DNA of 64,000 nucleotides from a virus (taxonomy: Duplodnaviria > Caudoviricetes). Every line of letters starts with the position of its first letter. Position 1 is the first letter of the stretch. Under the pieces are notes generated by a model. That model saw nothing but the letters and a program-made list of their open reading frames with translations, made no database searches and had not been told where the DNA came from. The DNA lies in IMG/VR virus record IMGVR_UViG_3300032216_002106, positions 12,059-76,058 of that record; one strand, given 5' to 3'. A program made the translations under genes and the position numbers. Below are positions 24,138-25,041 of the stretch, one piece after another.

Positions 24138-24206
24138 GCCACACTCAGTGTGTGGCAATAAGTAGGCAGGGGTTTGCACCCTGCCACCCGCTTTAACGGA
24201 TTACTT
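24138..24206 (-). ncRNA. Motif C tRNA-like three-way junction plus GCCACAC hairpin, copy 1
   Basis: P1 AAGUA/UACUU, P2 AUCCG/CGGGU, P3 GGCAGGG-UGCAAAC-CCCUGCC. Confidence 0.7.
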
Positions 24207-24470
24207 TGTAACCAGACGTGCCCGACGAATAACATATCTATCTTCTTGCTGAAGCAATGCAAGATAAATATATTCTCCTGGAGCTTGAGCCAAGCCTTGT
24301 TCAATCATTTCCTCACGGAGAGCATTAAGTATTGCTTCAAGAGTAGTTTTATAAAATGCAACAAGTTCCTTGGAAAGAACTACCTTCTTTCCTTGGTTAA
24401 TATGATGCGCTGCAATTCGAATGCGAGCAGCATAATCAGCGTTACGTTCAGCAACAGTCATTTTAGCCAT
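24201..24470 (-). CDS. Hypothetical protein
   Basis: 89-aa ORF after motif B copy 3. Confidence 0.65.
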   Translation of the reverse strand: MAKMTVAERNADYAARIRIAAHHINQGKKVVLSKELVAFYKTTLEAILNALREEMIEQGLAQAPGEYIYLALLQQEDRYVIRRARLVTK

Positions 24471-24487
24471 GGTGTGAATGCAATTGG

Positions 24488-24516
24488 ATGTCTGCGTGTA
24501 GGATGCGCAGCCCCCT
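24488..24516 (-). ncRNA. Motif B leader, copy 3
   Basis: Loop shortened to CAUCCUACA. Confidence 0.65.
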
Positions 24517-24521
24517 TGGCC

Positions 24522-24629
24522 TTACTTAATTAAACGATGCTTAATCATTTCGCAAGACCAACCAACGCAATAACCAATTGCGTAACCTACAAAAGCGTAG
24601 GTAGCCATTAGTAACAAAGTTGCAAGCAT
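24522..24629 (-). CDS. 35-aa hydrophobic peptide missed by the ORF track (MLATLLLMATYAFVGYAIGYCVGWSCEMIKHRLIK)
   Basis: Exactly fills the space between motif C copy 2 and motif B copy 3. Confidence 0.6.
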   Translation of the reverse strand: MLATLLLMATYAFVGYAIGYCVGWSCEMIKHRLIK

Positions 24630-24641
24630 GATCGTGAATAA

Positions 24642-24710
24642 GCCACACTCAGTGTGTGGCAATAACTGGACCAGGGTTTGCACCTGGTCACCCGCTTTAA
24701 CGGATCAGTT
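24642..24710 (-). ncRNA. Motif C tRNA-like three-way junction plus GCCACAC hairpin, copy 2
   Basis: P1 AACUG/CAGUU, P3 GACCAGG-UGCAAAC-CCUGGUC, both compensatory relative to copy 1. Confidence 0.7.
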
Positions 24711-24953
24711 GTTGTTAATGTGCTCTTGACGTGCACGTTCTTCAGCCCATCCGTAGAGACCCATGCCTCCTGGAGTTAGTACAAAACCTTCCCGGCCCCA
24801 GCCGGCAACTTGTCCTTCGCTGTTACGAAGAACTATTAAGGTTGTCTTAGCAAGCCGAAGCTTGCCTCCGATTGTTTTTGGTAACCGGGAGCCTTTCCAA
24901 TTAGCTGCAGAGCGCCGCAAAATTGCTTGCTCAGAAGCAGTAAAATTAGACAC
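24705..24953 (-). CDS. Hypothetical basic protein (GTG start, MSNFTASEQ)
   Basis: AGGAG Shine-Dalgarno upstream of the GTG. Confidence 0.6.
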   Translation of the reverse strand: MSNFTASEQAILRRSAANWKGSRLPKTIGGKLRLAKTTLIVLRNSEGQVAGWGREGFVLTPGGMGLYGWAEERARQEHINNN

Positions 24954-24969
24954 AGGAATCTCCTGTTGT

Positions 24970-24994
24970 GCGGTGCCCATCTCCGCTGTAGGCA
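24970..24994 (-). ncRNA. Motif D leader, copy 1
   Basis: UGCCUA-CA-GCGG-AGAUGGGCA-CCGC. Confidence 0.5.
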
Positions 24995-24997
24995 ATA

Positions 24998-25041
24998 CTG
25001 AGTGGGGGATTCGATCCCCCGGCATCACGCCTGGTACTCAG
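24998..25041 (-). ncRNA. Motif C-like tRNA-like junction, copy 3
   Basis: P1 CUGAGU/ACUCAG stacked on GGGGG-AUCGAAU-CCCCC; GGC/GCC hairpin. Confidence 0.6.

Follow-up and report, generated by a model that had tools for sequence, protein, structure and literature searches.

What are the compact folds that separate the first small genes in the early region of this cyanophage, and why does each of them take in the stop codon of the gene before it? The window, by which we mean the whole stretch analysed (64,000 nucleotides, positions 12,059 to 76,058 of the IMG/VR record IMGVR_UViG_3300032216_002106), carries three such folds. An earlier note on this DNA had read them as tRNA-like three-way junctions and proposed that they are processing sites for RNase P or RNase Z. 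At this locus every gene is encoded by the minus strand, on which the motif is also read:

24160..24206, minus strand: tRNA-like three-way junction, copy 1 (covariance model R1, 79.7 bits, E 1.4e-22; the centroid fold is the junction)
24664..24710, minus strand: tRNA-like three-way junction, copy 2 (R1, 85.5 bits, E 2.3e-24; the MFE fold is the junction)
24998..25041, minus strand: sister variant, here called copy 3 (P1 of 6 bp, side hairpin of 3 bp, T-like arm of 5 bp with a 7-nt loop)
24201..24203, minus strand: UAA stop of an 89-aa ORF (24201-24470), bases 1 and 2 pairing in P1 and base 3 opening P2
24705..24707, minus strand: UGA stop of the ORF ending at 24705, in the 5′ strand of P1 of copy 2
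25038..25040, minus strand: UGA stop of a 73-aa ORF (25038-25259), in P1 of copy 3

In copy 1, P1 (5 bp) joins 24206-24202 with 24164-24160, P2 (5 bp, 6-nt loop) joins 24201-24197 with 24190-24186, and P3 (7 bp) joins 24185-24179 with 24171-24165 beneath a 7-nt T-like loop at 24178-24172. Copy 2 has the same layout from 24710 to 24664. The two copies agree fully in P2 and in both loops, while P1 and P3 differ by compensatory changes; coordinates and sequence here bear out what had been noticed at first inspection. All three copies fold as a three-way junction, as MFE or centroid structure, with z values of -3.0 to -4.5. Model R1 was built from 59 distinct copies, and since it recovers copies 1 and 2 with E values of about 1e-22 and 2e-24, a chance match is excluded: the two are members of a widespread three-way-junction RNA. 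The same fold occurs in dozens of other phages, with several copies per phage, and cultured systems carry it too (S-SBP1 on WH 7803, and S-EIV1).

The comparative support is exceptionally clear. Within the 59 distinct copies 98.3% of cells pair, against 23-49% in slid controls, and double changes affect four of the five P1 pairs and six of the seven P3 pairs. Covariation in further homologs, on which the earlier note had made its reading depend, extends over all three helices in about 110 distinct copies. P2 is near-invariant in sequence as well as in structure. The loop of P3 measures about 7 nt in all 115 aligned copies (two are listed with 8), and the T-loop pattern claimed for the window copies is present in every one of the 115 (U1, R4, A5), closed by a G-C pair in 108 of 110 copies; position 2 is mostly G, where tRNA has U or pseudouridine. 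The last base of the P2 loop covaries with base 3 of the P3 loop, which identifies a Watson-Crick tertiary pair analogous to G19:C56 of tRNA. It is G:C in 107 copies, A:U in at least six (L126, L057, L144, L145, L152, L153) and U:A in L126 and L158. At one locus found in two phages (L153 and L058) the bases of this pair are the only ones that differ in the stretch shown. The pair also passed a prospective test: scans of the whole of IMG/VR recovered the two double mutants, and the single mismatches scanned for, A/C and G/U, were not found. Two point mutations would suffice for testing it experimentally.

The stacked length of P1 and P3 had been put at 12 bp, the length of the acceptor stem plus T arm of tRNA. 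Twelve is indeed the commonest total (66 of the 130 instances parsed), followed by 11 bp (30) and 13 bp (17), so that about a third of the instances deviate by one pair according to a parser that is crude and carries some noise. The two helices compensate each other in length (5+7, 6+6, 7+5). The element is a compact RNA three-way junction that shares a transcript with the early genes. In it, P1 and P3 stack into a 12-bp helix capped by a T-loop, where the P2 loop docks through a Watson-Crick pair. With T-loop, elbow pair and a coaxial stack of about 12 bp it has the features of a tRNA-like structure: D arm and anticodon arm are missing, but the axis formed by acceptor and T arm is reproduced, and so is the tRNA elbow.

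Copy 3 had been counted as a third copy of the same motif. It shares the junction as its MFE fold, the embedded stop and, after one extra U, the 3-nt spacer followed by a stem, but model R1 gives it only 7.5 bits (E = 3.8). Its T-like arm recurs in 14 occurrences at 12 other loci. Copy 3 is therefore a separate, recurrent sister variant that strictly lies outside the family of copies 1 and 2.

Searches against described RNAs gave no family to which the element could be assigned. When the window, the host loci and 128 kb of element-rich loci were compared with Rfam, no match reached gathering level. ARAGORN found 0 tRNA genes in the window, and the tRNA model RF00005 matched nowhere in the phage record at E ≤ 1 and nowhere within 23800-25400 at E ≤ 10. 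The covariance-model comparison with C4 RNA that had been suggested returned no C4 match at E ≤ 10. Two further RNAs showed a weak partial resemblance, far below their gathering scores and with E above 5: queA RNA (RF03093) at 15.7 bits and E 6.3 against a gathering score of 52.6, mostly on the clamp hairpin described below, and wcaG RNA (RF01761) at 14 bits and E 8.2 against a gathering score of 42, on a P2-less variant in L064. The search for queA RNA in 121 picocyanobacterial genomes found none, but it did not detect its controls either. Matches to Tombus_3_III, plastid psbI-rps4 and R1162 were at noise level. An intrinsic terminator was also rejected for the window copies, which continue with a 3-nt spacer and then a stem; the sole scanner match (24185-24165) uses the 3′ strand of P1 as its tail. 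In the literature searched on cyanophages, phage RNase Z and picocyanobacterial ncRNA we found no description of the element and no mapped RNA ends. It may be among the 10,006 candidates of the 2023 catalogue of viral structured RNAs (PMC10690425).

That the stop of the preceding gene falls within each of the three copies holds at 24203-24201, 24707-24705 and 25040-25038, and each of these codons terminates an ORF. Across homologs the embedded UGA or UAA is the end of the upstream ORF in 85 of 98 instances: it closes the longest upstream frame in 58 of the 67 canonical copies and, among variants B, C and D, in 27 of 31. For the copy 3 variant the figure is 11 of 13. The second base of the stop varies from G to A only, the sole paired change at that position that preserves a stop. 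These patterns indicate that the stop codon in P1 is kept by selection. It is placed there because the sequence of P1 is free and that of P2 fixed, and an ORF can therefore enter the fold as far as the invariant A that opens P2. A selenocysteine or readthrough signal was considered and rejected, as UAA replaces UGA with a compensating change in P1 and the downstream frame is continuous for copy 2 only, not for copy 1.

Downstream of the junctions lies a second layer of structure, which together with its operon context comprises the following features:

24157..24159, minus strand: 3-nt A/U spacer after P1 of copy 1, a discriminator-like A and then UU (proposed cut zone)
24138..24156, minus strand: clamp hairpin of 7 bp with a 5-nt loop, at the head of the next gene's leader (ATG at 24124-24122)
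24642..24660, minus strand: clamp hairpin 2, followed by the ATG (24632-24630) of a 36-aa hydrophobic ORF
24970..24993, minus strand: H-type pseudoknot after copy 3, in the place of the clamp hairpin
24951..24965, minus strand: predicted hairpin pairing the Shine-Dalgarno sequence with the start region
23870..25259, minus strand: five small ORFan cistrons with which the leftward early operon opens, from the ORF list
25437-25409, minus strand: promoter-like site upstream of the five cistrons
25837-25820, minus strand: terminator-like site upstream of the five cistrons

The 3′ flank (U)AUUGCC noted for all three copies resolves into a 3-nt spacer (24159-24157, 24663-24661 and 24996-24994, the last preceded by the extra U at 24997) and a G+C-rich stem. 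A 3-nt A/U spacer followed by a stem is found in about 75% of the 115 aligned copies (87 among the 25 commonest flanks listed). The clamp at 24138-24156 is repeated exactly at 24642-24660, and its stem covaries in the S-EIV1 and Ashivirus copies. Both stems of the pseudoknot covary over 61 distinct contexts, and the hairpin at the start region has covarying equivalents in other loci. The true start of the gene downstream of copy 3 is likely GTG 24953-24951. An alternative start at ATG 24980 with a common N-terminal peptide was discarded: it lies inside the covarying pseudoknot, is AUA in many copies and elsewhere is out of frame with the real start. Pairing of the clamp loop with the 3′ strand of P1 shows no covariation across homologs and was likewise discarded.

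The three elements follow cistrons one, two and four of the five, and the small proteins flanking them have no Pfam or PHROG match. No promoter-like site was found in or beside the copies. In Ashivirus S-SBP1 the element precedes the RNA polymerase gene within the early region, and here it is next to the promoter-like region. The elements belong to immediate-early operons. They are always on the same strand as the flanking genes, and when pairs of loci are compared the upstream gene alone is common to 59, both genes to 13 and the downstream gene alone to 5. Since the joint, unlike the flanking genes, is conserved, it is a seam where phages have exchanged gene cassettes.

Outside phages, the fold is also found in some cyanobacterial hosts, once per genome. 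Picocyanobacteria carry one copy each, after a gene, which usually is one conserved gene for a small basic protein without a Pfam or PHROG family, and Ktedonobacteraceae and a horse-faeces MAG have the same core. Neither an embedded stop nor a downstream gene accompanies the copies of hosts and other bacteria. The host and horse-faeces MAG copies follow a gene and mostly precede a U-rich tract (U-tracts were seen after some host and gut-MAG copies), which places the element at a transcript 3′ end.

We tentatively favour, at somewhat less than even confidence, a reading in which the element is a mimic of the tRNA elbow that lets host enzymes cut the early RNA on the 3′ side of P1, giving stabilised cistron ends. 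No CCA-adding enzyme, metallo-beta-lactamase-fold (RNase Z-type) protein or tRNA was found in the phage record, and because the phage encodes no matching enzyme we infer that recognition would be by host enzymes that measure from the tRNA elbow. The polycistronic immediate-early RNA would be cut directly 3′ of P1. RNase Z would be the first candidate, and RNase E could act in the A/U spacer as it does on tRNA trailers. The stop codon would then stay with the upstream cistron, whose 3′ end would be a tightly folded cap resistant to 3′ exonucleases, and the downstream cistron would begin 2-3 bases before the clamp hairpin or pseudoknot, which would shield its 5′ end. Cleavage by RNase Z, E or P is plausible. 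Several properties count against processing by tRNA enzymes: loop position 2 is G, the stack departs from 12 bp by one pair in about a third of the parsed instances, the first P1 pair is mostly A-U or G-U and rarely G-C, and CCA is not encoded after P1, where A (sometimes C) and then UU stand in about 80% of copies. An encoded CCA is also missing from many cyanobacterial tRNA genes. Long 5′ extensions are known to inhibit RNase Z in some organisms.

This anatomy would be compatible with a purely static stabiliser or insulator as well. The element would in that case be a compact 3′ UTR barrier against exonucleases and against misfolding between cistrons that is never cleaved, and which through its conservation also serves as a recombination linker. 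The folds are very stable, the joints are mosaic, and the U-rich tract that mostly follows the host and horse-faeces MAG copies would allow a terminator to form the 3′ end without a nuclease. On the other hand, a plain hairpin would do as a barrier, and the elbow, the T-loop and the stack of about 12 bp are left unexplained across variants with differing helix lengths. We see this as possible, on the unlikely side.

A cut by RNase P at the 5′ edge of P1, which the earlier note had put forward, possibly combined with a 3′ cut, would free a mini-tRNA-like RNA of about 50 nt, for example a decoy for tRNA-end enzymes or toxins, and leave the upstream message without its stop. Minihelices of acceptor and T arm are classical substrates of RNase P, the elbow and the 12-bp ruler are present, and several copies per phage would be in line with such a product. 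However, the selected stop (85/98) would be removed and every upstream ORF turned into a non-stop message. The restriction of the second stop base to G and A, the prevalence of A-U and G-U at the first P1 pair and the absence of similarity to the C4 model also speak against it. Because the stop inside P1 is kept by selection, the 5′ cut fits poorly; the 3′-side cut fits the data better, and we regard the RNase P scheme as unlikely.

The near-invariant sequence of P2 is typical of protein contacts and could mean that a specific phage or host protein binds the fold and controls translation or stability of the early cistrons, which would make it an operator and not a nuclease signal. The single picocyanobacterial copy, usually placed after the gene for the small basic protein, would agree with this. 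However, the core is also present in Ktedonobacteraceae and the horse-faeces MAG, where that protein is not expected, and no candidate partner was found in the phage, which makes this explanation improbable. The earlier note had also offered a translation-dependent switch, in which a ribosome terminating at the embedded stop melts P1 and P2, frees the 3′ strand and couples the next cistron. It draws on the presence of the stop inside P1 in most copies of all variants and, in the pseudoknot class, on the hairpin that pairs the Shine-Dalgarno sequence with the start region. Yet the next start lies 31-44 nt past the fold, the modules downstream fold independently and do not covary with the 3′ strand of P1, and the host and other bacterial copies have neither the stop nor the downstream gene to be coupled, so that we consider such a switch quite doubtful. 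A DNA-only recombination or integration site, for which one could cite the mosaic joints and the classical targeting of integrases to the T-arm and acceptor half of tRNA genes, is very unlikely, as compensatory changes including G-U pairs, the loop-loop tertiary pair and the constant strand relative to the flanking genes point to a folded single strand.

Folds of tRNA type that punctuate mRNAs are known from organelles and a handful of eukaryotic and viral RNAs; we know of no case in phages or bacterial mRNAs where such a fold serves as a repeated intercistronic device. In plant mitochondria, t-elements are tRNA-like folds without a decoding role at mRNA borders, where RNase P and RNase Z make the mRNA ends, and some are placed at stop codons or extend over them (Forner et al. 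2007, PMC1920247). With these and with the tRNA punctuation of animal mitochondria the element shares its position at mRNA borders in polycistronic RNA. Those systems are organellar, derived from tRNA genes and cleaved, whereas the element is of phages and bacteria, has two arms fewer and a conserved P2 of its own, and is a putative cleavage site. The RNase III sites between the early genes of the podovirus T7 are structured intercistronic elements at which the host-transcribed early message is cut and a protective structure remains at the 3′ end. Their region is equivalent to the one that holds the Ashivirus copies, but a T7 site is a long irregular hairpin cut by a nuclease specific for double strands, and the element is a branched tRNA mimic.

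In T4-type phages, the PeSL is a short conserved regulatory element that combines an early promoter with a terminator stem-loop, flanks small ORFans in hyperplastic early regions and brings about their modular shuffling (Arbiol et al. 2010, PMC2839356). The mosaic shuffling pattern is the same, but the element has no promoter, no U-tract and a conserved RNA tertiary fold; we rejected it as a PeSL-type cassette on the lack of a promoter-like site in or beside the copies, although shuffling is present. The C4 RNA of phages P1 and P7 and the CI RNA of P4 are phage RNAs matured by a host tRNA-processing enzyme, but they are antisense regulators, whereas the element is an intercistronic 3′ element that matches C4 in neither sequence nor structure. 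Mimicry of the elbow by a T-loop and a partner loop, recruiting tRNA enzymes or forming a 3′ end, is also found in mascRNA of MALAT1, in bacterial YrlA and in the 3′ TLS of plant viruses. These differ in organism, size and architecture, and no example among them is repeated between cistrons and takes in a stop codon.

A wider view would be that a general, uncatalogued device places a tRNA elbow on the 3′ ends of bacterial and phage mRNAs, made and maintained by RNase Z, RNase P and the CCA-adding enzyme. Cyanophages would use it for mitochondria-style punctuation of the immediate-early transcript, and an optional RNase P cut of the stop could yield non-stop RNAs and so act, through trans-translation, as a timer that ends the supply of early proteins. 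We hold this extended scheme to be a long shot. The element is located in the immediate-early region, which evolves fast and is a place of exchange for takeover and anti-defence genes. For cyanobacterial engineering it could supply a compact natural processing or insulator part. For the phages themselves, it could account for the movement of cassettes between unrelated families, and it could reveal how cyanophages segment and stabilise their early messages in hosts where RNA decay relies mainly on RNase E and RNase J.

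The small ORFs between 23.8 and 25.3 kb all lie on the minus strand, and the motif is therefore to be read on that strand, where it occurs as follows.

24206 to 24160, minus strand: copy 1 of the element, same layout as copy 2
24710 to 24664, minus strand: copy 2 of the element, same layout as copy 1
25041 to 24998, minus strand: copy 3, a sister variant

In copies 1 and 2 a P1 of 5 bp, the 3′ strand of which closes the element, is joined without a linker to a P2 of 5 bp with a 6-nt loop, and P3 has 7 bp and a 7-nt loop. As the earlier note had claimed, P2 and both loops are unchanged between these copies and all differences in P1 and P3 are compensatory. 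ViennaRNA gives the junction as either the MFE or the centroid structure (z-scores between −3.0 and −4.5).

The element was found by blastn in three phage records, Synechococcus phage S-EIV1, which has two copies, uncultured Ashivirus S45-C4, and Synechococcus phage S-SBP1, where it lies among the first genes, upstream of the RNA polymerase gene. By extension from these named records most IMG/VR contigs were taken as cyanophage. A 14-base pattern drawn from P2 matched at least 120 IMG/VR loci, and complete copies are present in about half of the 120 listed. In 59 distinct copies among the matches listed, 98.3% of cells are paired, against only 23–49% in a control with slid partners, and both-sided changes occur in 4 of the 5 P1 pairs and 6 of the 7 P3 pairs; P2 is invariant in this set because the search pattern fixed it. 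The covariance model R1, built from the 59 copies, recovered 123 copies in 62 loci, many of them divergent and situated at successive gene joints. The covariation in further homologs called for by the earlier note is present in P1, P2 and P3 of 110 distinct aligned copies, in an alignment that was fitted to R1 and so favours the structure.

Significant R1 matches in the window are restricted to copy 2 (85.5 bits) and copy 1 (79.7 bits). Copy 3, originally grouped with them, is a real and recurrent variant, seen 14 times in 12 other loci, but does not belong to the same model (R1 score 7.5 bits); its P1 has 6–7 bp, its side hairpin is small, and a 5-bp arm carries the T-like loop. Another variant has 6 bp in both P1 and P3, and in yet another P2 is missing altogether and the T-loop sequence is textbook-like. 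One such P2-less copy with a canonical T-loop sequence (locus L064, 5306–5410, plus strand) weakly resembles the cyanophage wcaG RNA motif (14 bits), to which it could be related.

The most telling of the tRNA-like features is a pair between loops. The two positions, the final base in the P2 loop and the third in the T-like loop, covary: they are G:C in 107 copies, and wherever one of them is changed in a canonical copy the other is changed too, to A:U or U:A. The covariation check was extended to this pair prospectively, by exact-pattern scans of the whole of IMG/VR. These returned the A:U double mutant twice, in complete copies at L152 and L153, and the U:A double mutant in L158, and gave no match for the single mismatches A/C and G/U. 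L153 and L058, which represent the same locus, differ within the stretch shown solely at the two bases of the pair. Double mutants without these single mismatches are the signature of a Watson–Crick loop–loop pair that is the counterpart of the tRNA elbow pair G19:C56. The P3 loop follows the proposed T-loop pattern, beginning with U and having a purine as its fourth and A as its fifth base (115 copies); it has 7 nt, or 8 nt in 2 of the 115, and is closed by a G-C pair in 108 of 110 copies, the counterpart of G53-C61 in tRNA. The anticipated 12-bp stack of P1 and P3 is the commonest sum, given by 66 of the 130 instances parsed, with 30 at 11 bp and 17 at 13 bp, according to a crude parser that admits some false hits, by which the lengths also compensate among variants (5+7, 6+6, 7+5). 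The element itself was rejected as a tRNA: neither ARAGORN nor the Rfam tRNA model detected one, it lacks a D arm and an anticodon arm, and no CCA is encoded.

The stops of the three preceding ORFs (24203–24201, 24707–24705 and 25040–25038) do lie within the 5′ strand of P1, as first read. Among 67 non-redundant canonical copies the triplet at the P1/P2 border is UGA in 63 and UAA in 4, and in 58 it ends the longest upstream frame, usually of 50–165 codons; the same holds for the related variants B (12/14), C (11/13) and D (4/4), which differ in their helices. Base 2 of the stop varies only from G to A, its P1 partner then changing from C to U, and base 1 hardly varies, next to P1 pairs that show every pair type. 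Copies outside cyanophages have the same fold without a stop at that position, so the stop is under selection in the phage copies and is not a folding requirement. Its simplest reading is maximal overlap of ORF and element: P1 is sequence-free, which allows the ORF to extend into it, and the fixed P2 would set the limit, its invariant first A serving as the last stop base. At copy 2 (24630–24953, minus strand) upstream ORF, element and downstream ORF share one frame broken only by UGA; at copy 1 no such frame runs through, and the continuity is therefore treated as coincidence.

On the 3′ side of P1 three A/U bases precede a G+C-rich stem, and the downstream leader modules are of three interchangeable types.

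Leader module 1: hairpin with a conserved 5-nt loop
Leader module 2: another hairpin
Leader module 3: H-type pseudoknot, then a hairpin pairing the Shine-Dalgarno sequence with the start region
24138–24156 and 24642–24660, minus strand: clamp hairpin of 19 nt, an exact repeat, after copies 1 and 2
24970–24993, minus strand: H-type pseudoknot after copy 3, also in 61 contexts in comparison loci L008–L121
24951–24965, minus strand: hairpin, Shine-Dalgarno sequence paired with the GTG start region; pairing kept elsewhere with different sequences
25409–25437, minus strand: promoter-like site near 25.4 kb, operon start
25820–25837, minus strand: clean terminator-like hairpin and U-tract, ending the 75-aa gene 25858–26085

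The clamp has a conserved 5-nt loop, and its 3′ half is the source of a weak resemblance to Rfam queA RNA (15.7 bits). Both 4-bp stems of the pseudoknot covary, each with at least three pair sets in the 61 contexts. The ATG at 24980, once read as opening a gene whose product shares an N-terminal peptide, was rejected as a start, as it lies inside the pseudoknot and the AUG is not conserved; the gene after copy 3 likely starts at GTG 24953. The elements follow cistrons 1, 2 and 4 of a leftward operon, the start of which is set by the terminator-like hairpin and then the promoter-like site; its cistrons are ORFans with no Pfam or PHROG match. A conserved intercistronic hairpin (motif B; 24487–24515 in the window and ~3640–3670 in L001, both minus strand) after a 36-aa hydrophobic ORF is common to the window and S-EIV1.

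Gene sharing was scored over all pairs of loci. The upstream gene is common (up to 99% alike) and the downstream genes are unrelated in 59 pairs, compared with 13 pairs sharing both and 5 sharing the downstream gene alone, which marks the element joint as a seam of cassette exchange. For this shuffling aspect PeSL cassettes are nearest (PMC2839356).

A stricter pattern was scanned across one genome per prokaryotic species, with host taxa as labelled in the records and by family grouping. Copies were found in Ktedonobacteraceae MAGs and Thermosporothrix, three in succession after small genes, and on contigs binned with one Bacteroidetes and one cyanobacterial MAG; four more, each with a U-tract behind it, are in a MAG from horse faeces that carries the label archaeon (L126, 2010–3751, minus strand). 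The core fold extends far outside cyanophages. One Ktedonobacteraceae triplet (L131, 2799–3728, plus strand) lies near an ORF judged by eye to be excisionase-like. In the family of the cyanobacterial MAG, taken to be picocyanobacteria, 24 of 141 genomes have exactly one copy. At 6 of 10 fetched host loci a single conserved gene, encoding a small basic protein, has its stop codon 8–22 nt before the element, which is usually followed by a U-rich tract. This protein (L143, 908–1564, plus strand; also L142 and L147–L150) has ~170–200 aa, a possible ribbon-helix-helix N-terminus (by eye) and a basic Lys/Ala-rich tail, and matched no Pfam, NCBIfam or PHROG family. Two of the ten loci have different genes in front of the element, and there P1 contains the stop codon. 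At one of these, in a high-GC cyanobacterial genome (element at L144 1501–1565, ORF 1560–2618, minus strand), the gene is of the anti-restriction type ArdC and combines ArdcN with a zincin-like peptidase, which suggests a tie to genes of the early or leading region of mobile elements. By this position after genes, the cellular copies lie at the 3′ end of the message.

No Rfam 15 family reached threshold in the window, the host loci or 128 kb of element-rich loci; queA and wcaG RNA, the best partial likenesses, were dismissed as noise-level. A literature search found no published description. The sequence family is undescribed in curated resources; it could figure among the viral RNA candidates of an uncurated catalogue. 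Nearest in function are plant mitochondrial t-elements and mitochondrial tRNA punctuation (PMC1920247) and the T7 early RNase III sites.

Comparative sequence evidence thus describes a folded RNA of the coding strand with a tRNA elbow and a 12-bp axis at cistron 3′ ends, followed by conserved A/U spacers and a 5′ clamp, at mosaic joints. Its function, which we infer throughout, would be that of a tRNA-like processing or stabilising signal, a known kind. Other possibilities are purely static stabilisation, an operator bound by a protein, and a switch that depends on termination. Cleavage by RNase P on the 5′ side is rated lower than a 3′ cut, because it would strip the conserved stop and generate non-stop messages. 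In the preferred reading, a 3′ cut, host enzymes, no cognate enzyme having been found in the phage, would gauge the distance from elbow to end and cleave the early polycistronic RNA 3′ of P1; the cut could be made by RNase Z, or in the spacer by RNase E as it is on tRNA trailers. The upstream mRNA would then end in the fold as a cap, and the downstream mRNA would start at the protective clamp.
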